IMG/VR virus record: IMGVR_UViG_3300028602_000006
DNA: 64,000 bases
From: a virus
Lineage: Duplodnaviria; Heunggongvirae; Uroviricota; Caudoviricetes
Strand: one strand, 5' to 3'
The position numbers were made by a program, and so were the translations under genes. Below the pieces are notes generated by a model. The model ran no database searches. It had not been told where the DNA came from and was given only the letters and a program-made list of their open reading frames with translations. How positions within the stretch are numbered: the stretch's first letter is position 1; every line of letters begins with the position of its first letter. Shown piece by piece: positions 1,845 through 64,000 of the stretch.

Positions 1845-2051
1845 AAATGGGTAATAGCGTCAAAATAGATTATGCATACAAAGATATATCTGAAGTTGAA
1901 GAAATTTTGGGATATACAGTAAATGAATCATTTAAAACAGGGTTTAGTATGGCAAGAATGACTAATCCCATGTTCGGAAAATTGGATAAGGCGCATAAAC
2001 AGAGGAAGAAATCGAAATCACATAAATAGTCTTTAATTAGCGGAGATAATA

Positions 2052-2303
2052 ATGCCCAATAATATTAAAGACATTATGGATGAAGAGGGTAAATGGTGCA
2101 GAATAGACGGATGTAACGGGGCAATGGAGTTGCAATGGCCATTCGGAGAAGAATGCACCTGCCATCTTGGACATCCACCATGTCATGCTTGCATTAATAT
2201 GAGGCTTACCTGTACTAAATGCGGGCATGTCATAGAAGACGAGAATTACGAAGACGACGAAGAATATAAGGGAAATGTCTTGACTCATTACATTAATTTA
2301 TGA
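2052..2303 (+). CDS. Small Cys/His-rich (zinc-binding?) hypothetical protein
   Basis: SD-like GGAGATAATAATG. Multiple CxxC/HxxC pairs (CRIDGCNG, CTCHLGHPPCHAC, CTKCGH). Confidence 0.45.
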   Translation: MPNNIKDIMDEEGKWCRIDGCNGAMELQWPFGEECTCHLGHPPCHACINMRLTCTKCGHVIEDENYEDDEEYKGNVLTHYINL

Positions 2304-2306
2304 TAG
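2280..2306 (+). promoter_or_regulatory. Promoter-like motif TTGACT-N13-TATGATAGG
   Basis: Near-identical to the motif at 34-60 (TATGATAGG shared). Lies 11 nt upstream of the small leader ORF at 2317. Confidence 0.4.
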
Positions 2307-2316
2307 GATTTGTTTT

Positions 2317-2424
2317 ATGATGGAAGTACAAAAATATATTAGGGAAAACGGTCTCGATAAACTTCGGGAAGAATTTTCGATAATTGTTACCGATTATCCT
2401 GACCGAATTGGAGCAATATTATGA
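2317..2424 (+). other. 35-aa leader ORF homologous to the N-terminus of the RNA-ligase-like gene at 7102, translationally coupled (ATGA) to the nuclease-helicase gene
   Basis: Hand translation gives MMEVQKYIRENGLDKLREEFSIIVTDYPDRIGAIL. This aligns with MTMHVQKYLREKGLKSLIDEFHIDVREYDDRIV of the 7102 ORF at roughly 60 percent identity. Its stop TGA at 2422-2424 overlaps the ATG at 2421. Confidence 0.5.
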
Positions 2425-4619
2425 ATACTATTAAACTTACGCATCCTTTTATAAATAAATGTCCTGACATTGATGAATTATTCTTCAATAAAGATGGCGA
2501 AGTTGTTTGTACGATTAACGCCTTTTGTGGTAAAATTAAAACTTTGTCAGCAAAGTACTCCGACAGGATGGATGAAAATAAATTCAAAGGTGATGCTTTA
2601 GAGTTGTTTACTGAATTTATGATCCGAACAGCGCCTGAAGACAATCGTATTGGTATTTACAACTACAAACCTATTACTGATGCAGAAGACGATGATGTCG
2701 GCGTTGATGGATTTGGGGCAGGCGAAGATGGAAATCCAGCTACAGTTCAGGTGAAGTACAGGGCCGGTAATTATGTCTTGACAGCAAATGCAGATCACCT
2801 TTCTAATTTTCTTACTGCGTCTTGGAATGACTTCGCAGTTCCTATCAATTCAAAAACAAATATGCTTATTGTCACAACAGGCCAAAAGGTAGATGAAAGA
2901 ACTCGTCAAAAGATGCTCAAAGACAAAGTGAGAGTACTTAACAGAGATTCTTTACGAAGAATGTACGATAATCGTCCTGAATGGTGGAAACGATTTTACG
3001 AATCAGTAAAAAATAACCGTTTTGCTCCTAGCCACAAACGTACCCCCATCGTTTTAAGACAGCATCAAAAAGAAGCAAAAGACGCAATCAAAAATGATAA
3101 AAACGGTAAGGGTAAAGTACTTCTTCCCACTGGAACAGGGAAAACCATAATTGAGGTCCATACAGCAATTGATTCAATCAAAGCGCTAAGGCGTAAAAAA
3201 GTAATCGCCCCCATCATTAAAGTTAATTCGAGTCGTATTCTTCTTTGCTTCCAATTAGCTGATGATTTTATTAAAGAATTCGCTATGGCAAAAATAAATG
3301 CTCGATATGTTAATTTCAATTCGGGCAAAAAAGATGAAACAGAATATGCTGAATTGATGCAACAAGAAGGGTGGGGGTATAGAAAAATTCTATCCACTAC
3401 AAATCCCCAAGAAGTTGCTAAGGTCTATGAGGATTGTAAAAAGAAAAATATGCCTTTGGTTATCTTCAGCACTTATCATTCCTCTGAAAGACTGGCTGAA
3501 AGTGGATTGGTTCCCAATATGACAATTAATGACGAAGCTCATAATCTAGTTTCTAGAAATTTTCATAGGGCCGCTAAATTACCTACTGATAGTAATATCT
3601 TCTTCACTGCGACTGAAAAGGTAACAGATTCCGATGACGGTTTGGGCATGAACAACGAGGACGTGTTTGATAATATAATTTACACAAAATCTGCAAAGGA
3701 ATTGATTGACGCAGGAGAAATGGTTCCTCCTTATCTTCATGTTGTTCGATCTTCTAACGAATGCCGCATTGATACGGATTACGAAATGATGTTTCAATCT
3801 ATCGTAGAAGCATTTAAACATCATGAAAATAAGATAAAAGAAGTGTCTTATGATGCTGAAAATATAGGCGCTAAAGTTCTTGTCGTTTGTAGAGGACAGC
3901 AGGATCTACTTCAGATGTTTAAGACAAAAGCGCTTGAACATTTTAAGACAAATTACCCTGATATCCATCTATTTGCCTTATCTTCTGAATTTGGGATGGT
4001 TAATGATGGAGAGTTCTTTGAACCTCCTGTAACAAATATCAAGAAATATCATATGTTGAAAAAACTTAAAGCTATGGGTCATAACGAGAGGGCTTTGATT
4101 TTTCATGTCGATATGATTGGGGAAGGGATTGATGTCCCCGGTGTTACAGGAATAATGCCATTTAGGAATTGTGAAGAGTCTAAATTAATTCAGAATATTG
4201 GCAGGTCAACTAGACTTCATCCTGAAGATCGTAAGCGTTTTTACAATGAAGAAATTAGCCCTAATGACCGAACAATAGGATGGATTAAACCTTATGCATG
4301 GGTTATCATCCCATCATATATGATCGATTCTGAAGGTATCGAGGCTCGTTTTAGATTTATTATAGATCGTGTCAGAAGAGAGTACGGCTACATCCCTCAA
4401 CAGCATACAGTTATAGATAATGTTGAGGGTTTAAGCGATGAAGACGAAATTGATACTGTCAATAAAATCACTAAGAAAAAGAAACAAGTAAAATCTCATA
4501 TAGAAGAATTCAAACATGAATATGAAAAAGTTTGTGTTATGGAGAAAATTATCATGGAAGATAAGTTGACTCAAAAAGAGAAGGATGTATGGGATGAACT
4601 TAAGGCTATGGGATTGTAA
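2421..4619 (+). CDS. PD-(D/E)xK-like nuclease domain fused to SF2 (DEAH) helicase; restriction-enzyme-like motor subunit
   Basis: N-terminal GVDGFG...VQVKY (D...QxK variant of PD-(D/E)xK). Helicase motifs I LLPTGTGKT, II NDEAHN, III FFTAT, and a QNIGRSTR arginine finger. Confidence 0.7.
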   Translation: MNTIKLTHPFINKCPDIDELFFNKDGEVVCTINAFCGKIKTLSAKYSDRMDENKFKGDALELFTEFMIRTAPEDNRIGIYNYKPITDAEDDDVGVDGFGAGEDGNPATVQVKYRAGNYVLTANADHLSNFLTASWNDFAVPINSKTNMLIVTTGQKVDERTRQKMLKDKVRVLNRDSLRRMYDNRPEWWKRFYESVKNNRFAPSHKRTPIVLRQHQKEAKDAIKNDKNGKGKVLLPTGTGKTIIEVHTAIDSIKALRRKKVIAPIIKVNSSRILLCFQLADDFIKEFAMAKINARYVNFNSGKKDETEYAELMQQEGWGYRKILSTTNPQEVAKVYEDCKKKNMPLVIFSTYHSSERLAESGLVPNMTINDEAHNLVSRNFHRAAKLPTDSNIFFTATEKVTDSDDGLGMNNEDVFDNIIYTKSAKELIDAGEMVPPYLHVVRSSNECRIDTDYEMMFQSIVEAFKHHENKIKEVSYDAENIGAKVLVVCRGQQDLLQMFKTKALEHFKTNYPDIHLFALSSEFGMVNDGEFFEPPVTNIKKYHMLKKLKAMGHNERALIFHVDMIGEGIDVPGVTGIMPFRNCEESKLIQNIGRSTRLHPEDRKRFYNEEISPNDRTIGWIKPYAWVIIPSYMIDSEGIEARFRFIIDRVRREYGYIPQQHTVIDNVEGLSDEDEIDTVNKITKKKKQVKSHIEEFKHEYEKVCVMEKIIMEDKLTQKEKDVWDELKAMGL

Positions 4620-4684
4620 ATATTATTGACATTGCTTGTCGGATATGTTAATCTTTTCATATCTTAAATGGTAAAGGATATTTA

Positions 4685-5881
4685 ATGAGTCAAGAAAAAA
4701 TATTGGATGCTCAAGCTGTTAGAAGTGTTTATGAGAAGTTTTCTATAGATTTGCCAAATATAGGCAATCTACAGAACGTTTTTACTCCTTATTCGCTTTG
4801 CAAGGATATGATTGGACGCCTGAAGAAGTATAAGAGGAAGTTTGAAGGAGCGAACTTCTCTGTTTTTAATCTTGAATTTGCTGAAGTTTTAATGTATGAT
4901 TATGGAGTTAAGGCAAATCAGATTTGGTTCTTTACTGATTGTGTTGAGAAGAGCAAATTCGCTCAGTTGAATAGGTATGCGGGGTTGAATGTCGAATTGG
5001 TTAATTTAAGCCGATTCTTACGGGAGAAGATTACTATGAAATTTGATGTTGTTATTATGAATCCGCCTTATCAGGCCCCTAAAGCCAAAGAGCACGAAGG
5101 GAGAGGAAAATGTGGAACATCGCTGTGGGAAGATTTTGTTAGGAAATCCTTTGAATTGGCGAAAGATGATGGATATGTTTGTGCTATTCACCCTAATAGG
5201 TGGAGAAGACCCGAGGGCAAAATTGGCGAATTAATTAAGTCAAAACAAATTCATTATCTTGAAATGCATGGACTGGAAGACGGAAGGAAAACATTTTCTT
5301 GCCAAACCGATTATGATTGGTATATTGCTCAAAACAAAAAATCAGAGACCAATACGCAAGTTGTAGACTATGATGGTGAATCAAATTCAATTGATTTGAA
5401 AAACGCTCCTTTCATTCCCAACTCCAATGTGAAAGATGTTTTGTCTCTCGTCGCAAAAGAAGGAGAAGAAAAAGTCAATTTGTTATGGAACTGTGAATAT
5501 CATACTCAAGCAAGAGCAAAAGACGGAACGATGTCACCAATACAAACCGATGAATTTAAATACCCTTGTGTTTATTCTGTAACAATCAAAGGAGAAGTTA
5601 AGTTTTGGTACTCAAGCAAAAAAGAACAATTTTTTGGAATTCCTAAGGTCATATGTTGCAATGGTCATACTATGCCAATTGTTGACAAAAATGGGGAGTA
5701 CGGATTAACTCAATTCGCATTTGGAATAGCTGATAAAAAAACAAATTTAGAAAAAATACAAAATGTTATGAATTCTGATGAATTCAGGAAAACAATAATG
5801 GGTTATAGAGATAATGGTGGCAATGTTTATGACAAGAACATGATAGCAACTTTCCGCAAAGATTTTTGGAACGAAATATGA
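4685..5881 (+). CDS. N6-adenine DNA methyltransferase (NPPY) with C-terminal putative target-recognition region
   Basis: VVIMNPPYQAP is a motif IV. Upstream NVFTPYSLCKDMI is a motif X-like element. No clear FxGxG motif I in this ORF. Confidence 0.6.
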   Translation: MSQEKILDAQAVRSVYEKFSIDLPNIGNLQNVFTPYSLCKDMIGRLKKYKRKFEGANFSVFNLEFAEVLMYDYGVKANQIWFFTDCVEKSKFAQLNRYAGLNVELVNLSRFLREKITMKFDVVIMNPPYQAPKAKEHEGRGKCGTSLWEDFVRKSFELAKDDGYVCAIHPNRWRRPEGKIGELIKSKQIHYLEMHGLEDGRKTFSCQTDYDWYIAQNKKSETNTQVVDYDGESNSIDLKNAPFIPNSNVKDVLSLVAKEGEEKVNLLWNCEYHTQARAKDGTMSPIQTDEFKYPCVYSVTIKGEVKFWYSSKKEQFFGIPKVICCNGHTMPIVDKNGEYGLTQFAFGIADKKTNLEKIQNVMNSDEFRKTIMGYRDNGGNVYDKNMIATFRKDFWNEI

Positions 5882-6453
5882 AAACCACCACAAAAACTTG
5901 TACCAAACGCCAAAATCGAAAAAAACAAACTGCTGAGGATTTTACTCCGGCATGGTTGGTTAATCAAATGCTCGACAAGTTAAATGAATATGGAAAAGAA
6001 TCATGGGAAGAAGGGAAAACTTTTCTTGATCCTGCTTGCGGGAATGGAAATATGCTCGTATGTGTTTTGAAGCGTAAAATAAAACTAGGACATGATCCAT
6101 CAGAGGCATTGAAAACTATCTATGGAACCGACATAATGGATGATAATATCAAAGAGTGTCGCTTAAGGCTCCTTAAAATTATTCAAGAAGAAGGAATTAA
6201 AATAACACTTGAGCACATTAAATCTGTGTTTAATAATATTATTGTAACGAGATTGAGTAGATACAAAAGTGGATCTCTTGACTATAATTTCAAATTCAAA
6301 AACAAAGCATCGCATAAAGATGTTATTAAGTGGTTAGACGGAATACAGAACCACAACTGGCTTGAGTTAGTGGGACACGAAAACATTAATGCCATCATAA
6401 AAAATGACGTTGAAGCTAGTTTTGTTGAAGAGAAATTTGCCGCATTCTTTTAA
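5866..6453 (+). CDS. Methyltransferase N-terminal-like fragment (motif X + motif I + post-I, no NPPY)
   Basis: FTPAWLVNQML, LDPACGNGNMLV (FxGxG-type) and IYGTDIMDD. Overlaps the previous ORF by 16 nt in another frame. Confidence 0.45.
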   Translation: MERNMKTTTKTCTKRQNRKKQTAEDFTPAWLVNQMLDKLNEYGKESWEEGKTFLDPACGNGNMLVCVLKRKIKLGHDPSEALKTIYGTDIMDDNIKECRLRLLKIIQEEGIKITLEHIKSVFNNIIVTRLSRYKSGSLDYNFKFKNKASHKDVIKWLDGIQNHNWLELVGHENINAIIKNDVEASFVEEKFAAFF

Positions 6454-6531
6454 AGGAGTTTTGTTGGCTTTTCTTGTATAATATGTACATGAGAGCGACC
6501 AATAAACTCGTAGAAATTAGATATTTAATAA

Positions 6532-6596
6532 GGCTCTACCTAAGTAGGATCTGGGAGTTTGGTCGCTTTCACCTACTTGGGGACGAGCCTTTTTTA
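6532..6596 (+). terminator. Long-stem rho-independent terminator
   Basis: GGCTC...CTAAGTAGG...CCTACTTGG...GAGCC nested stems are followed by TTTTTTATT. It also carries three copies of AGCGACCAA (two direct, one inverted). Confidence 0.5.
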
Positions 6597-6775
6597 TTCC
6601 AGTTAAGGAGAGCGACCAAAAATGAAAGACGAAATAGAAATTGTAGTGCGATTGAGCGAAATTGCATCGAAAAGATTAGATAAATTGCGAATAGATGGGA
6701 TTGATATAATATTCGACTTACACAACGATGTAGAAGAATATGTTAATGTTTGGCTGATAGGATTAGAGGTCAATT

Positions 6776-7055
6776 ATGCAAACTAAAACATGTTCAATTT
6801 GTAAAGAAGATCTATCTATACATAACTTTTACAAAGATAAGAAGTCTCCTGACAGGCATAGTTATCGATATTTTCGGATGGTATGAAGTGGTCAAACTAT
6901 GGAGGTAGAACGGGATGGCAAATAGATCATATCATTCCTTGTGCAAAATTTGACTTGACAGATGTAAAAGAACAGCAAAAATGTTTTCATTATTTAAATT
7001 TACGACCTTTATGGGGAAAGGACAATCAGAATAAAGCTGCAAAAATTGCTTGACA
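6776..7055 (+). pseudogene. HNH endonuclease, apparently frameshifted (zinc-finger N-part and HNH core in different frames)
   Basis: Frame 1 reads MQTKTCSICKEDLSIHNFYKDKKSPDRHSYRYFRMV*. The +1 frame continues ...GGRTGWQIDHIIPCAKFDLTDV...NLRPLWGKDNQNK* (HNH D-H-I...N...N). The shift lies near the T-run ATTTTC at about 6878. Confidence 0.45.
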
Positions 7056-7078
7056 TTTATCATCGAATCATATACAAT
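7050..7078 (+). promoter_or_regulatory. Sigma70-like promoter (TTGACA-17-TACAAT)
   Basis: TTGACA at 7050-7055 with a 17-nt spacer to TACAAT at 7073-7078. Lies 24 nt upstream of the rnl-like ATG. Confidence 0.55.
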
Positions 7079-7101
7079 GACGTAAACAATGGAGAAATAT
7101 T

Positions 7102-8343
7102 ATGACAATGCATGTTCAAAAGTATTTACGAGAAAAAGGTCTTAAATCTCTGATAGATGAATTCCATATAGACGTTCGTGAATATGATGACCGAATTGTC
7201 TTGAATTACGATCAAATAGAATCGCCGAGGTTTCATCCTATTTGTGATGAATGCCGAGCGCTTATTCTCCGTAAGTCTGATTGGTCAGTAATGGCTCGCT
7301 CGTTCGATAGGTTCTATAATTGGGGAGAAGGCGTAGAAGATCGTGTTCTTAAAGAAAATCCTTTAATGCAAAGAATTACTATCGATCCTTTTTCATCTAC
7401 AATATACGATGGAAATAACAAGTTTATGCCGTTCCCCTTGCAAAACTCTCTAGTGCAAGAAAAACTAGATGGGTCTCTCATATCTGTATATTGGGACGGA
7501 GAAGATTGGTGCGCTTCAACTAGAAAGATGGCCCATGCTGAGGGTCAAACTAATTTCGGAACCACATTTTCTGAAATATTCTGGGGCGTAGATAAGGATT
7601 TGAAAGAAAAACTTTCCAAGTCTAATTGCCATCAGCAAACTATTGTTTTTGAACTAACGGGGCCAGCGAATAGGATCGTGACCGCTTATCCTAATACAGG
7701 AATAACTTTAATCGGAGGCCGGTGGAACCTAGAGAGCCTTGACTATAAGGAACTAACTGCCAAAGAGCTAGATGACTTGGAAAAATCATGGGGTATAACC
7801 CGACCAAAAAATTACGAGGTCGATGATGCTACTAATTTAATCTCATTAGTTCATGGATTTCCCGCCATGGACGAGGGAGTTGTCTTGGTATATGAAAATA
7901 CAAATGGCTCTCATTTTCGTGTGAAGGTGAAAAACCCTCGTTATGTAGCTATCGCTAATATGAGGGCTAATGGAGGTATTTCACCTAAGCGAATTCTCTT
8001 TCTTATTATGGAGAATGAACATCACGAGTATTTGAAATATTTTGAGGAAGATCTCAAATACTTCAAATTTGTTGAGGAAGAATATCTCGAAGCAATAAAT
8101 CGTATTACAAATACATGGAATAAGGTAAAAGACATTAAAGATCAGAAAGAGTTCGCTTTGACAATGATGCCTCTTACTGAATATTCATTTGAAAAAGGTT
8201 TATTGTTTTCCGTCAGAAAAAACGGGACAACTGTTGAACAAGAACTTAAGAAAATAGAACCGAAGAAAATTGCGTTATCAATGAATCTTAAGGGGAAATT
8301 CGCCAAAGAATTTGGTGTACAAACGGAGGAAGAAGATGAGTAA
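7102..8343 (+). CDS. ATP-dependent RNA ligase-like nucleotidyltransferase (Rnl1-like)
   Basis: Motif I KxDG in QEKLDGSLISVYW. Size 413 aa. SD GGAGAAATATTATG. Confidence 0.5.
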   Translation: MTMHVQKYLREKGLKSLIDEFHIDVREYDDRIVLNYDQIESPRFHPICDECRALILRKSDWSVMARSFDRFYNWGEGVEDRVLKENPLMQRITIDPFSSTIYDGNNKFMPFPLQNSLVQEKLDGSLISVYWDGEDWCASTRKMAHAEGQTNFGTTFSEIFWGVDKDLKEKLSKSNCHQQTIVFELTGPANRIVTAYPNTGITLIGGRWNLESLDYKELTAKELDDLEKSWGITRPKNYEVDDATNLISLVHGFPAMDEGVVLVYENTNGSHFRVKVKNPRYVAIANMRANGGISPKRILFLIMENEHHEYLKYFEEDLKYFKFVEEEYLEAINRITNTWNKVKDIKDQKEFALTMMPLTEYSFEKGLLFSVRKNGTTVEQELKKIEPKKIALSMNLKGKFAKEFGVQTEEEDE

Positions 8344-59825: not shown

Positions 59826-60065
59826 ATGAAATCATCAAAATTTGCAAGGATAATGAAAGATATGGAAAATAAAAATCATAAGGTCGTTAGAGTCTCTAAA
59901 ACAGAATTTGAACTAGATACGGGAGACATTTACCCAATCCCGTTTGATTTGGGATATGAACCAACGCTAGAAGAATTCCAAAAATTTATAAATGATTCCA
60001 AGTCGCTTATATCTGAATTCATTAAAAAGTCAGAAAAGGAGAAGCGAAATGCTAGAAAAAGATAA
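59826..60065 (+). CDS. Hypothetical protein
   Basis: SD AAAGGAGTATGAAAAATG. Confidence 0.4.
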   Translation: MKSSKFARIMKDMENKNHKVVRVSKTEFELDTGDIYPIPFDLGYEPTLEEFQKFINDSKSLISEFIKKSEKEKRNARKR

Positions 60066-60735
60066 ACTCCTTAGTATGGCAGAAACTTGTTCTCTTCTCA
60101 ATGTATCCCAAGAAACCTTAAGGAATTGGGATGCTGATGGAACTCTAAAGCCAGTTAGAACAAAAGGTGGTCATCGTAGGTATAAGCAGAGCGATATTAA
60201 TTCTTACATGGGAATTAAAGAAGAAGAAATCAATAGGAATCTTCTTCCTGTTGCGACTTATGCTAGAGTGAGTAGTCATGAACAGAAACAAAAAGGCGAT
60301 TTAGATAGACAAAGCCAAAGATTGTCTGAATACTGTGCCAAAAAGAAGTATAGAGTTGAACACATTATTAAGGATGTCGGTTCAGGTCTATCGGACACAA
60401 GAAGTGGATTTAATAAATTATTTGACCTTGTAATCCAGAAAAAAGTATCTAAAGTAATTGTAGAGCATAAAGATAGATTGACTCGTTTCCAATTTAATGT
60501 ATTAGTAAGATTTTTTGAGAGTTATGGTGTTGACATAGAGAAGGTTGAGTCTACGTCTTCTAATGATGAAGAGGAATTAGTTCAAGATATTATGATGCTT
60601 ATGGCTGTTTTCTCAGGGCGACTTTACGGCAAAAGGTCAGCAAAACGAAGAAAAGAGAAAAAATTGCAGAAAGAGCTTGACTTACTCAATGGTTCTGGTA
60701 TGATGACGCCAACAGTTGAGAAAGGAATAGAATGA
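60049..60735 (+). CDS. IS607-type serine recombinase (MerR-like HTH + resolvase catalytic domain)
   Basis: N-terminal HTH LSMAETCSLLNVSQETLRNWDADG. Catalytic YARVSSHEQ, DVGSGLSD, RLTR. Start set at the ATG with SD AAAAGGAGAAGCGAAATG. Confidence 0.7.
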   Translation: MLEKDKLLSMAETCSLLNVSQETLRNWDADGTLKPVRTKGGHRRYKQSDINSYMGIKEEEINRNLLPVATYARVSSHEQKQKGDLDRQSQRLSEYCAKKKYRVEHIIKDVGSGLSDTRSGFNKLFDLVIQKKVSKVIVEHKDRLTRFQFNVLVRFFESYGVDIEKVESTSSNDEEELVQDIMMLMAVFSGRLYGKRSAKRRKEKKLQKELDLLNGSGMMTPTVEKGIE

Positions 60736-61424
60736 AAAACGATAACCAATTAGACAATGATATGTTGGCAACTTCGATAACCCATCCAAGAAATATTGCG
60801 GTTAAATGTTGGGATGTGCTTTTAGAGAAGTGTAGTTCATTGTCTTGTTTTGCGTCCAGAATAGAAAAACAGGCTGGAATTATAGAAAAATCAGAAAAAG
60901 TTGATTTCTTTGATAAATATGGCGAGGATGGAGCCAATTCTTTCAAAGGTGATGTAACAGAGGTTTTTGCAGAATATGTCCTTAAAGGATATGGAAGAAC
61001 ATGGGGAATTTATAACTATGTTCCATTCTTTTCTGTTTGTGGGGAAGATCAAGATGTGGGAGTGGACGGAACAGGCAAGACAAAAGACGGAAGAGTTATT
61101 ACGGTTCAGGTTAAATATGGCAACTGGTCAACTGCCCTTGATCATATTAAAAGAAAATTAAGAACCTTCCATTGGACTTCAATTTCGAAATATGGAGTTG
61201 GAACCACAAGTAGAGATCAAATGTTTGTCTTTACCTTGGCTCACGATATAAATTGGATGACTTTAGGTGGACATTTTCATGGGAGATTGAAATTCATAGC
61301 CCAAGAAGAGTCTGGCGGAATTTATCTTCCAAATAACGATCCAACAGAAGTTTGTTCTTTGAAGTCTGTCTGTGGCAATAATCCTACGTTTTGGAAAACA
61401 TTTTGCGAAATGGTGAAATCATGA
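60732..61424 (+). CDS. PD-(D/E)xK-like nuclease domain protein (paralog of the N-terminus of 2421-4619)
   Basis: QDVGVDGTGKTKDGRVITVQVKY parallels DDVGVDGFGAGEDGNPATVQVKY. ATGA overlap with the recombinase gene. Confidence 0.6.
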   Translation: MKNDNQLDNDMLATSITHPRNIAVKCWDVLLEKCSSLSCFASRIEKQAGIIEKSEKVDFFDKYGEDGANSFKGDVTEVFAEYVLKGYGRTWGIYNYVPFFSVCGEDQDVGVDGTGKTKDGRVITVQVKYGNWSTALDHIKRKLRTFHWTSISKYGVGTTSRDQMFVFTLAHDINWMTLGGHFHGRLKFIAQEESGGIYLPNNDPTEVCSLKSVCGNNPTFWKTFCEMVKS

Positions 61425-63781
61425 AAACAAATCATATATTCAAATTCAAAATTCTTAATGGAAGCGTCTCTAATGCTGGTAATTTGATGCCTTCTGATTT
61501 GTCCTTTGACGGATTTGGACAAAATCTTAGGAAACTTTCACTAGAAAGTAAAACTGCTAAAGACTTTATTGAGAGTGGCTTTCAGTCTTTTGTGGAAGCA
61601 TTGATACTTTATTTTGGAGATAAAATCGGTATCAGTGATTACGAAAATATTAATTCGATTAATCATAAATATAAGGCTCATGGTCTTGGCAAGAGAAATG
61701 GCAAGGTTGTAACTGCTTTCTTCGCCTTTAATGGCAAAGAGTTCATGACAGATGGCAACAGTCAACTTACTGAATATTTTTCTCAATCATGCTATCTTGA
61801 CGGATTTGATTTGTCTGCCGATGAAAAGGTATTCAATATATTTTCTGATTCTGTTGCGATTCATGAAAACACTATAAAGAACTTTGTTTTGCCAGAGAAA
61901 ACAAAATTTTATGGAATTAATGAAATCAAGTCTTTGGTTGATGGCAATATCGGTTTCTGGAAGGCATATAGGGAATCTTTGGAAAATGCCGTCAATGAAG
62001 TTTTATCATGTTCAATGGATTTTGTTCCAGACGCATACCAAGTGGAAGCAATAGATAGGCTATTGGCTATTCGTACAACAGAGTTTATTTCTGGTCAAAA
62101 GATGGAAAGCGAAATAATAAATGAAGTTTGTTTAGATAAGCCTCGATTCAAAATCTCCAACAATAAGATAATTACATTCTATAGACATGAAAAATTAATC
62201 ATTGAAATAGATATGTCTCATAAGAGAGCACAGGTAATATGGCCCACTGGAACGGGAAAAAATGAAATTATGATGGAATTTTCAATACGATTGGCTAAAC
62301 TGCTTAGATCGCAAGGGATGTCAGTTAAAATATTATTCATATCTCCTCGTATTAATTTAGGAGTGCAAGGAATTAGAAAAATTGTCAATAGGCTCAAGCA
62401 GTATGATGCTGATAATGAAGTTGAAATAGTTAATTTTTCGTCAGGAGGCTACGATAATGATAGCCTCGCAAAACTTGATTGCAATATTGATGGAGTAACC
62501 AGCACAACGTCGGTGAATGTTCTCAAAGACATTATCAATAGGTCAAATGGTTGTACTTTTGTTTTCTCCACATATAATTCAGTTGATAAGATTATTGATG
62601 CTGGTATTAAATTTGATCTTATAAATTGTGACGAAGCTCATAATATTGTTAAGGGGAAAAGCATTCCGCAAAAAAGTAGAGAGGCTGTTATTTCTGAACA
62701 GGCTAGACGCCTTTCTCCTTTTACTGTATTTTATACTGCCACACAAGCTCTAACTGGGACTCCAGATGCCCCTATAGAAGATGGGAAAGGAATGGATAAC
62801 CCATCATTATTCGGAGAAGTTATTTCCCGAAAGACTCCCAAGGAAATGATAGAATGTGGAAAAATTGTCCGTCCTCTTTTGTGCCATTTGTCGATTACAA
62901 AAGCTATTTTAAGAAAGCACGTTGACATCTCTTCTGCAACGCAGGAAGAAATAACTAAAAATGCGGAACTTAATGCTTATATAATATGGGAATCTTATTT
63001 AGAAATTGAGAGAATCAACCAAAGACATTCCTTAAATAGTGACCAAAATTGCATCAAAATGTTGGTTAAGTGTCCGGGAGGTAAATCATATTCTGAAATA
63101 ATAAAATCAAAAACATTTCAGCAATATAGCAAGAAATTTCCTAGTGTTGGAATATATGGAATTTCTAGCGATTGGGGTAATTGGATAGACGGAATAAGAT
63201 ATGAATCAAATTCTAAATCAGAAAATCTATTCTTAGACACGTTAAGGGACAAAAAATCAGATGAAAAAGCAATCATTCTTCACATAGCGAAAGTAGGTGA
63301 AGGATGGGATGTACCGGGAATTAATGCTATTCTTCCCTTTGGCGACATGAGCGATATTACTTCAAGTCAGGCTTTGGGTAGGGGAATGAGACTTCATCCT
63401 TTTGATAGAGAAAGATTGTCTAAGAGCTTGATAGTCCCTTCGGATTGCTATAAAGGGAAGTTCTATAAGCCATTCTGTTATGTTATTATGCCAAAATATT
63501 GTGGATTTAGCGATATTAACAGAAACAATATTGAGAGAATGGTGGATCAGATTCAGTCCGATATTGGGTATTGTCCTTATGAGATATTCAATGAGGAGAC
63601 CTATGATGGCAAGATGATTACTGTTCCACCGCCTAGAATTGAAAAGACCTATACTGTTCCTGAAGAGATTGAGCATGAATTTAGTATTATTCTTTCAATT
63701 GAGGAAAGAAAAAAGCAAGAAGAGTTTAGGAAACAAGTGGATAGCGAGAAAGAGGCGTTGCGAAAGGAATTTGCGTTATGA
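61391..63781 (+). CDS. SF2 DEAH-type helicase (paralog of the C-terminal part of 2421-4619), Walker A variant GKN
   Basis: WPTGTGKN, NCDEAHN, FYTATQ and GEGWDVPG...QALGRGMR. Overlaps the nuclease-domain ORF by 34 nt in another frame. Confidence 0.65.
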   Translation: MENILRNGEIMKTNHIFKFKILNGSVSNAGNLMPSDLSFDGFGQNLRKLSLESKTAKDFIESGFQSFVEALILYFGDKIGISDYENINSINHKYKAHGLGKRNGKVVTAFFAFNGKEFMTDGNSQLTEYFSQSCYLDGFDLSADEKVFNIFSDSVAIHENTIKNFVLPEKTKFYGINEIKSLVDGNIGFWKAYRESLENAVNEVLSCSMDFVPDAYQVEAIDRLLAIRTTEFISGQKMESEIINEVCLDKPRFKISNNKIITFYRHEKLIIEIDMSHKRAQVIWPTGTGKNEIMMEFSIRLAKLLRSQGMSVKILFISPRINLGVQGIRKIVNRLKQYDADNEVEIVNFSSGGYDNDSLAKLDCNIDGVTSTTSVNVLKDIINRSNGCTFVFSTYNSVDKIIDAGIKFDLINCDEAHNIVKGKSIPQKSREAVISEQARRLSPFTVFYTATQALTGTPDAPIEDGKGMDNPSLFGEVISRKTPKEMIECGKIVRPLLCHLSITKAILRKHVDISSATQEEITKNAELNAYIIWESYLEIERINQRHSLNSDQNCIKMLVKCPGGKSYSEIIKSKTFQQYSKKFPSVGIYGISSDWGNWIDGIRYESNSKSENLFLDTLRDKKSDEKAIILHIAKVGEGWDVPGINAILPFGDMSDITSSQALGRGMRLHPFDRERLSKSLIVPSDCYKGKFYKPFCYVIMPKYCGFSDINRNNIERMVDQIQSDIGYCPYEIFNEETYDGKMITVPPPRIEKTYTVPEEIEHEFSIILSIEERKKQEEFRKQVDSEKEALRKEFAL

Positions 63782-64000
63782 TTCTGTCAGCAAAACAATT
63801 GGCTCTTAGAGAGTATTATCAAGAAGTATTCAAGGAGTGGGAAACTCTTGATAATAACTTGCAGAATGTTTTTACGCCTTATGATCTTTGTGAGAAAATG
63901 ATAGATAAGGTTTGCAAGTATTGTGAACTAAAGGGCAAAAAGATATTGGTTACGAATTTGGAATTTGCTATAGTTCTTGTTGAAAGAGGGATTGATCCTA
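63779..64000 (+). CDS. Methyltransferase paralog (5' part; continues beyond window)
   Basis: LQNVFTPYDLCEKMI...NLEFAIVLVERG parallels LQNVFTPYSLCKDMI...NLEFAEVLMYDYG of 4685. ATGA overlap with the helicase gene. Confidence 0.5.

Follow-up and report, generated by a model that had tools for sequence, protein, structure and literature searches.

Two overlapping genes were analyzed in a 64,000-nucleotide stretch of viral DNA (IMG/VR record IMGVR_UViG_3300028602_000006, Caudoviricetes), hereafter the window: open reading frame (ORF) A at positions 4685-5881 and ORF B at 5878-6453. The reading that we favor, with a probability of roughly 0.6, is that their sequences encode two subunits of one gamma-type N6-adenine DNA methyltransferase, which would belong to a three-polypeptide module similar to Type ISP restriction enzymes. 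ORF A carries the catalytic motif IV and a target-recognition domain, and ORF B carries the motifs for binding of S-adenosylmethionine (AdoMet). The N-terminal half (N-half) of ORF A, termed pseudo-N-half here, has lost the glycine loop of motif I. The features of both genes are as follows.

4685-5881, + strand: ORF A, a TaqI/CamA-like methyltransferase chain made of pseudo-N-half, NPPY catalytic half and recognition domain
4766-5020, + strand: N-half of ORF A (amino acids 28-112), with the motif X-like NLQNVFTP, FNLEFAEVL replacing motif I, and FFTDC with the motif II acid D85
5042-5074, + strand: motif IV of ORF A, FDVVIMNPPYQ (NPPY at amino acids 126-129, nucleotides 5060-5071)
5330-5878, + strand: C-terminal target-recognition domain of ORF A (approximately amino acids 216-398, the boundary near 216 being an estimate), with the terminal family signature FRKDFW
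5878-5881, + strand: ATGA junction in the sequence, where the start codon of ORF B overlaps the stop codon of ORF A
5878-6453, + strand: ORF B, putative standalone AdoMet-binding half with a helical tail and no catalytic motif
5932-5949, + strand: motif X of ORF B, AEDFTP (amino acids 19-24)
6025-6051, + strand: motif I of ORF B, LDPACGNGN (amino acids 50-58)
6118-6135, + strand: motif II of ORF B, IYGTDI (amino acids 81-86)
6271-6291, + strand: family motif of ORF B, GSLDYNF

ORF A starts with ATG, encodes 398 amino acids and ends with TGA at 5879-5881. Amino acids 109-179 matched the Pfam family Eco57I (PF07669, E = 1.8e-13), and across 96 sequences N126 and P128 of motif IV were invariant, with P127 and Y129 conserved in at least 93%. 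When the 96-sequence alignment was used as input, AlphaFold returned a model (predicted local distance difference test, pLDDT, 94.2; predicted template modelling score, pTM, 0.91) consisting of a complete Rossmann-like domain, with strands at residues 58-60, 80-84, 102-105, 120-125 and onward, followed by a C-terminal domain. Foldseek matched this model to the two-domain enzymes CamA, M.BseCI and M.TaqI (E about 1e-13); these alignments spanned 417-557 columns, with template modelling scores normalised to the query of 0.54-0.60. Two hallmarks of the gamma class, motif IV of the form (N/D)PP(Y/F/W) at the end of strand 4 and, as far as the models indicate, a full class I Rossmann-like fold with a C-terminal recognition domain, were found in ORF A and not in ORF B. 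A third, a glycine-rich motif I on the same polypeptide as motif IV, was missing, the canonical LDPACGNGN lying on ORF B. Database searches yielded 788 homologues of ORF A (E down to 1e-147) and 295 of ORF B (E down to 1e-100); the closest non-identical match shared 56% identity with ORF A versus 83% with ORF B, which is the more conserved of the two. Matches of this number and strength lie well outside chance expectation. A curated NCBIfam name was found for neither protein, nor for the bacterial counterparts described below.

In ORF B, the AdoMet residues D51, P52, G55, G57 and D85 were invariant or nearly so among 106 homologues, and the family motif GSLDY(D/N)F was likewise near-invariant. 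Amino acids 16-114 aligned with positions 19-110 of the 311 positions of the Pfam profile N6_Mtase (E = 3.5e-6). The AlphaFold model (pLDDT 91.8, pTM 0.86) began with N-terminal helices, contained just two clear strands (residues 49-51 and 81-83) and ended in a helical tail, so that the predicted sheet appears incomplete, with strands 1 and 2 only. It weakly resembled the first ~110 residues only of CamA, M.BseCI, DrdV and LlaGI (Foldseek, E >= 0.17), and PDB sequence matches also fell on gamma-class enzymes. An exhaustive profile search recovered 166 clusters (50% identity) at E <= 1e-30 and 2216 at E <= 1e-10, most clusters of the family being 110-250 amino acids long. The sequence of ORF B clearly identifies it as an N-half of the DNA N6-adenine methyltransferase type, and it does not belong to a non-DNA methyltransferase family.

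A first-pass annotation, made from the letters of the DNA, had described ORF A as a protein with an NPPY motif and a putative target-recognition domain but no convincing motif I, and ORF B as one with motifs X, I and post-I but no NPPY. These assignments were borne out by the located motifs, by FNLEFAEVL with its shortened loop and by the match of the ORF A model to two-domain enzymes, and the profile searches that it proposed returned Eco57I for ORF A and N6_Mtase for ORF B. Its placement of ORF B at 5866-6453 was right insofar as this ORF exists (TTG start at 5866, 195 amino acids), but the ATG at 5878 (191 amino acids) is the better start because it reproduces the recorded protein (P0121, matched at 100% identity and coverage) and overlaps the ORF A stop codon.

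Both proteins share out the positions of single profiles. On TIGR02987, ORF B covered positions 7-103 and ORF A positions 104-130; on the PADLOC profile mad2, ORF B covered 267-334 and ORF A 341-416. The division of labour thus falls between motifs III and IV. The N-half of ORF A was itself homologous to ORF B in a profile-profile comparison (hhalign probability 93.7%), in which QNVFTPYSLCKDMIGRL of ORF A was paired with AEDFTPAWLVNQMLDKL of ORF B. Here, the DPACGNG loop was four residues shorter in ORF A and read FNLE. The motif I position of ORF A is occupied by FNLEFAEVL (amino acids 61-69), without a glycine-rich motif; none of 96 homologues had a glycine in the loop, and bulky residues were found throughout. 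A lost glycine loop together with homology to ORF B fits a partial duplication.

The ATGA junction suggests that translation of ORF A and ORF B is coupled. Among pairs of the type found in the window, a 1-nucleotide overlap of stop and start codons (TAATG or TGATG) occurred at 13 of 28 junctions, the window having the ATGA variant. Twelve of these 13 overlapping junctions had an AAGGAG-like motif (AAGGA or AAAGA) 8-9 nucleotides upstream, and this Shine-Dalgarno-like sequence coincides with the codons of a conserved C-terminal K-E of the ORF A relatives. A promoter and terminator scan of 2000-7200 gave background levels only and was uninformative on operon structure.

To compare gene neighborhoods, 271 related loci were gathered, and distinct members of the family defined by the catalytic half of ORF A (A) were sorted by the state of their N-half. 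Loci were counted when they had at least 700 nucleotides of flank on both sides or when a relative of ORF B (B) was present; B had to lie within 1.5 kb. Standalone B genes were found as follows.

A with FNLEF-type N-half, as in the window: 23/23 loci, 22 with B downstream
A with DPxxKxG: 4/4 loci
A with another degenerate N-half and normal length: 6/6 loci
A with another degenerate N-half inside large fusion proteins: 0/2 loci
A without N-half: 12/18 loci
A with canonical GxG: 4/30 loci

At the remaining loci without N-half, a weaker or more distant B was seen at L045 and L085; at L206, the short A scored under the family cutoff. Non-canonical N-halves were thus strongly associated with an adjoining B compared with canonical ones (odds ratio 37, Fisher p = 1e-10), although this p-value is overstated because the loci are related by descent. 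A DNA-level search with 4000-7000 against 50,697 phage records gave no match, and a protein search with ORF A against the same records found one uncultured phage only.

Further evidence came from A relatives that start directly at motif IV. These short proteins of about 280-300 amino acids were counted only if an upstream in-frame stop within the locus confirmed their start, and they lie next to B, which was located downstream (L010, L011, L113, L221, L206, L018 and L024-26) or upstream (L003, L006, L050 and L064-66). Since such conserved A proteins lack an N-half, their fold would be impossible without a partner. In three loci, one B was followed by several ORFs beginning with NPPY: two in L006, two in L013 and four in L015. 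Single-chain fusions were also detected: (i) B joined to a catalytic half (P0279); (ii) B joined to a pseudo-N-half and a catalytic half (P0316 and P0329); and (iii) a circularly permuted form with catalytic half, recognition domain and then B (L016, L017, L019, P0318, P0341 and gp239 of Aeromonas phage AsFcp_4). Such Rosetta-stone fusions are a classic sign of parts acting together. Fusions of the second type show that both N-halves coexist in one functional unit, whatever their arrangement. We also considered whether pairs with B before a short A are frameshifted single genes; this explanation fails on the more common order, in which the short A precedes B. In a neighbor-joining tree of the catalytic halves, A proteins without N-half were scattered among those with a degenerate N-half. 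This tree was not relied on because it has no support values and because many of the short proteins come from contigs of 1-2 kb and are perhaps truncated.

Overlapping frames with complementary motifs could also be expected from a pseudogene, a frameshift or an assembly artefact affecting one methyltransferase, but we attach next to no probability to a broken gene and consider it effectively refuted. The catalytic half comes first in the window, so no frameshift repair would yield a normal gamma enzyme. Also, both parts belong to large families, with 788 and 295 homologues and with the 166 ORF B clusters nearly all at 110-250 amino acids; junctions are conserved; both folds are predicted with high confidence; and a diverged second module is found on the same contig (see below).

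Pairs of this kind were also found outside uncultured viruses. In the cultured T4-like Klebsiella phage PKO111, gp114 has NPPF and a degenerate N-half together with a GIY-YIG domain, and gp115 resembles B; in the cultured T4-like Vibrio phage phi-ST2, the pair consists of genes 0371 and 0372. The database labels in cultured T4-like phages such as these two are "hypothetical protein" for the A partners and "DNA methyltransferase" for the B partners. The phi-ST2 pair (L273, 242520-246345) lies directly upstream of genes for a 6-pyruvoyl-tetrahydropterin synthase (QueD-like) and QueC of the 7-deazaguanine pathway, which would place two DNA-modification systems next to each other. The bacterial counterpart is a triad (Phocaeicola, Bifidobacterium and Lachnospiraceae) of a B-like protein, an Eco57I-type protein of ~520 amino acids with DPxxK(S/T)G, and a GIY-YIG-helicase of 870-970 amino acids; for the large subunits of this triad, PADLOC gave a match to one single-chain model, REase_MTase_IIG. 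At one Lachnospiraceae locus (L160, 4316-5651), two B-like genes in tandem precede one Eco57I-type gene and a helicase gene.

The first-pass annotation had left two readings side by side, namely two partial methyltransferases that complement each other, or a duplicated and decayed one. The former is now the better supported, on the comparative evidence of synteny, coupled junctions, A proteins without N-half and fusions; the fused versions whose existence it had suggested looking for at homologous loci were found as B-A, B-catalytic half and permuted catalytic half-B chains. Duplication is retained as a likely origin of the pseudo-N-half, given the hhalign match and the lost loop, but decay does not agree with its near-invariant residues and a mean pairwise identity of 41%. 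It had also named an outcome that would speak against its proposal: a complete fold with a divergent motif I in ORF A, along with an ORF B from a non-DNA methyltransferase family. The first half of this was observed, but ORF B turned out to be the N-half of a DNA N6-adenine methyltransferase.

Immediately upstream of ORF A lies a third gene.

2421-4619, + strand: Mrr-like (PD-QxK) nuclease domain (amino acids 1 to ~200) fused to a superfamily 2 (SF2)/ResIII helicase, the putative restriction/translocase subunit of module 1

Its helicase part matched the Pfam families ResIII (4.3e-9) and Helicase_C (3.4e-6) and represents the SF2 helicase-like ATPase expected of a Type ISP system. For the N-terminal domain, the match of amino acids 87-191 to Mrr_cat_2 (PF13156) was marginal (22.9 bits, cutoff 22), so that the Mrr-family PD-QxK nuclease of Type ISP enzymes is recognized only marginally; E61, E65, D92, D96, Q110 and K112 were invariant in 13 homologues. 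Neither the helicase nor its N-terminal domain had a usable match among PDB sequences. A helicase of this family was present at 18 of the 23 loci with FNLEF-type A, the other five having little upstream flank, versus 0/19 loci at which A lacks an N-half. The three genes 2421-4619, ORF A and ORF B may constitute one module, with the A/B pair as its modification and recognition part. Neither this module nor its second copy on the contig (see below) had been pointed out in the first-pass annotation.

In the mechanism that we propose, ORF A and ORF B would be made as a translationally coupled pair and then associate. ORF B, as a free-standing copy of the N-half with motifs X, I, II and III, would supply the AdoMet site, and ORF A would flip the target adenine into the NPPY pocket formed by strands 4-7 and read the sequence via its recognition domain. 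One possibility for the pseudo-N-half is that it moves aside, perhaps as a mere placeholder or to couple the enzyme to the helicase; the latter role would fit the co-occurrence with the helicase (18/23 loci versus 0/19 without N-half). The resulting heteromer would both methylate DNA and recognize targets on behalf of the Mrr-nuclease/SF2-helicase. The data show the motifs, predicted folds, conservation, synteny, coupled junctions, fusions and A variants without N-half; from these we infer that A and B associate physically, that B rather than A binds AdoMet, that the system has methylation and restriction activity, and where the pseudo-N-half lies in the complex. In evolutionary terms, the A/B pair could be an intermediate of partial duplication or gene splitting, in a family that would hold all stages leading from the normal gamma order to a circularly permuted one like that of the beta class.

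Several observations weigh against an A/B heteromer. Its weak point is the predicted geometry, as the conserved N-half of ORF A is modelled where B must sit: in the AlphaFold model, this N-half supplies strands 1-3 of the complete ORF A sheet with pLDDT >95, which leaves ORF B no simple place next to strand 4 as long as the N-half stays in position. Moreover, the sequence pattern of the pseudo-N-half is that of strong purifying selection. Within the ORF A family, the N-half was about as well conserved as the remainder, its mean pairwise identity of 41% lying between those of the recognition domain (38%) and the catalytic half (46%); Q30 and T34 were invariant, N62 and E64 were 99% conserved, and position 85 was acidic in all homologues (95% D, 5% E). 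Because the pseudo-N-half is conserved including the motif II acid (D85) and D/N-F/Y at the motif III position, ORF A may yet accommodate a ligand with an adenosine moiety, or bind AdoMet non-canonically. Four loci (L060, L062, L075 and L238) have an A with an apparently intact GxG loop and an adjoining B nevertheless. A strict rule, by which B is present only if A has no GxG, was accordingly dropped; the association is strong but not absolute. Finally, B-type half-domains were found fused to beta-class-type methyltransferase domains in P0246, which has SPPY and FxGxG, and in P0255, which has FxGxG and no clear (D/S)PPY. This points to possible partners of B outside the A family, or to roles other than completing a fold.

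Part of these data would suit an ORF A that is a self-sufficient adenine methyltransferase with an atypical motif I (N62-x-E64-F65), ORF B then binding elsewhere as an accessory AdoMet-binding regulator, sensor or stimulatory partner, comparable to the inactive members of some methyltransferase heterodimers. We regard this as unlikely. It agrees with the complete and confidently predicted fold of ORF A, with a pocket-like set of kept residues (N62, E64 and F65 at 91-99%, the acidic position 85, and Q30, T34 and P35 of motif X), and with the presence of B beside some A proteins having a GxG loop and in fusions with beta-class-type methyltransferases. The glycine loop, however, is shortened by four residues and filled with bulky residues in all 96 homologues. 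To our knowledge, AdoMet-binding class I methyltransferases keep at least one small residue in the motif I loop. Self-sufficiency also leaves unexplained why A proteins without N-half stand beside B, why permuted fusions exist and why B is scarce next to A with a canonical motif I (4/30).

Less probable still is that ORF A is no methyltransferase but a DNA-recognition and base-flipping sensor for the nuclease-helicase, and that ORF B acts separately, for example in AdoMet sequestration or with another catalytic partner. The lost AdoMet loop and the distribution of the helicase, which accompanies A with a degenerate N-half and not A without N-half, would be consistent with such a role, and in Type ISP enzymes the methyltransferase-recognition unit doubles as target sensor (PMC4666363). 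On the other hand, NPPY is invariant as in active enzymes, B is fused in cis to A in P0316 and P0329, and carrying a restriction module that offers no self-protection would come at a cost. A search of the 64-kb window found no other NPPY-bearing partner for ORF B.

A more far-reaching proposal builds on the favored two-subunit enzyme. ORF B could be a shared, exchangeable AdoMet subunit, with the Rossmann fold built in trans from strand 1 of B and strand 4 of several catalytic subunits, of which one B would serve up to four; the pseudo-N-half would have been repurposed, and intermediates between gamma and beta order would have been kept as living genes. We put this forward tentatively, as a possibility that we consider less likely than not. 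Should it be true, phages would possess a modular methyltransferase of multiple specificities.

Compared with the monomeric gamma-class enzymes M.TaqI, CamA and M.BseCI (PF07669/PF02384), ORF A shares the two-domain fold and NPPY, and the order of motif X, strands 1-3, motif IV and recognition domain is the same. The difference is that those enzymes carry the AdoMet loop and NPPY on one chain, whereas here the loop lies on the separate 191-amino-acid ORF B. By definition, a Type ISP enzyme combines Mrr nuclease, SF2 ATPase, coupler, methyltransferase and recognition domain in a single chain (PMC4666363), and the PD-QxK signature has been described for these enzymes (PMC3874165). By analogy in domain content, module 1 resembles such an enzyme, having the same set of Mrr-like PD-QxK nuclease, SF2 helicase, gamma methyltransferase and recognition domain. 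In contrast to the all-in-one polypeptide, module 1 is spread over three genes (2421-4619, 4685-5881 and 5878-6453); it also includes an extra AdoMet-binding half, which Type ISP enzymes do not have, and is found on a phage-like contig, not on a bacterial plasmid.

Natural two-subunit methyltransferases are known from the C5-cytosine family, namely M.AquI and M.EcoHK31I, in one case with overlapping genes, and fragment complementation has been achieved in the laboratory for M.BspRI, M.HhaI and M.SssI (PMC3404938). As in M.AquI-type enzymes, the methyltransferase fold would here be assembled from two polypeptides. The break in those C5 enzymes, however, lies within or after the variable region (motifs VIII/IX), whereas it falls between motifs III and IV of an N6 enzyme here, and neither of their subunits has a redundant pseudo-half such as ORF A keeps. 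METTL3-METTL14, Trm61-Trm6 and the ciliate MTA1 complex are heterodimers of an active methyltransferase and an inactive paralogue, pairing an AdoMet-binding with a non-binding subunit (PMC5023411, PMC2175304). Labour is split similarly in these pairs, but both partners are full domains, and AdoMet site and catalytic motif reside together in one subunit; in the present case, the chain that bears the catalytic motif lacks the AdoMet loop, and its partner amounts to half a domain. The full-text literature yielded no description of a naturally split gamma-class methyltransferase, although its coverage was incomplete and an earlier description is possible.

The gene order, A and then B, is that of the beta class (motifs IV-VIII, recognition domain, X, I-III), but it is distributed over two chains instead of one; relatives with exactly this order on one chain are the permuted fusions listed above. 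The sequences of ORF A and ORF B are moreover gamma (Eco57I/TaqI-like), the permutation runs across genes, and a redundant N-half is retained and conserved. For the origin of permuted methyltransferases, duplication (Jeltsch 1999) and fission-fusion (Bujnicki 2002) have been proposed, as summarised in PMC3320104. The A/B family holds forms predicted by both models: partial duplicates, as well as separate halves and fusions in both orders.

If the two-subunit reading is correct, the pair would be, within the literature searched, the first amino-methyltransferase in nature whose Rossmann fold is divided into an AdoMet half and a catalytic half, and the family would offer natural intermediates for the debated origin of the permuted classes (duplication versus fission-fusion). 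Phages could multiply their methylation specificities by adding catalytic/recognition subunits only, and natural templates for split-methyltransferase tools would be available. Methylome predictions made from either gene alone would be wrong, since the A and B partners carry separate labels and one active site would be formed from two chains.

A second, diverged set of nuclease, helicase, A' and B' genes (module 2) is located on the same contig, with four genes versus three in module 1. Its parts within the window are the following.

60732-61424, + strand: separate nuclease-domain gene of module 2 (230 amino acids; same motifs GD..E..E / GVDG / VQVK as in module 1; phrog_7683, 1.3e-10)
61421-63781, + strand: helicase paralogue of module 2 (786 amino acids as called)
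63778-64000, + strand: first 74 amino acids of the A paralogue of module 2 (P0086, 395 amino acids, 40% identical to ORF A)

The B paralogue (183 amino acids, 50% identical to ORF B) follows just past the window end. The module 2 helicase keeps an N-terminal domain with degenerated nuclease motifs beside the intact separate copy of 230 amino acids; the same pattern of an intact separate and a degenerate attached copy is seen for ORF B and the N-half of ORF A. Module 2 is flanked upstream by a serine-recombinase/MerR-helix-turn-helix gene (59992-60735; phrog_6620 transposase, E = 6.7e-57) and downstream by a Cas12f/TnpB-like gene (L111, 7738-8826, just past the window end). This IS607-like pair suggests that the module is possibly mobile cargo.

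The window comprises the first 64 kb of a 182,571-bp contig (ena:ERZ27250894:k141_2398814) deposited as a metagenome-assembled genome of a Synergistaceae bacterium. Nearly all genes of the window are on the + strand, its GC content is about 36%, PHROG matches include a helicase, NAD synthetase, polymerase and T4 Rnl1-like RNA ligase, and viral contigs of IMG/VR contain many relatives of both ORFs. Because of the single-strand gene orientation, the PHROG-type genes and the IMG/VR relatives, the contig probably stems from a jumbo phage whose sequence ended up in a bacterial bin.

Three further genes in the vicinity of module 1 were noted. The ORF at 1224-1844 (206 amino acids) matched phrog_15480, 'methyltransferase' (E = 6e-36), has GGLGLG, lacks NPPY and had no Pfam family match; it looks like a third, unrelated small AdoMet-dependent enzyme. 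The ORF at 6883-7053 (56 amino acids) had weak matches to HNH endonucleases (E = 0.07-0.08) and appears to be a truncated HNH remnant between ORF B and an RNA ligase gene. The latter, at 7102-8343, immediately downstream of module 1, encodes a T4 Rnl1-type RNA ligase (PF09511, E = 2.2e-17). In AsFcp_4, a HAD domain of the RNA-repair type (PF18143, E = 1.7e-22) comes after the permuted methyltransferase.

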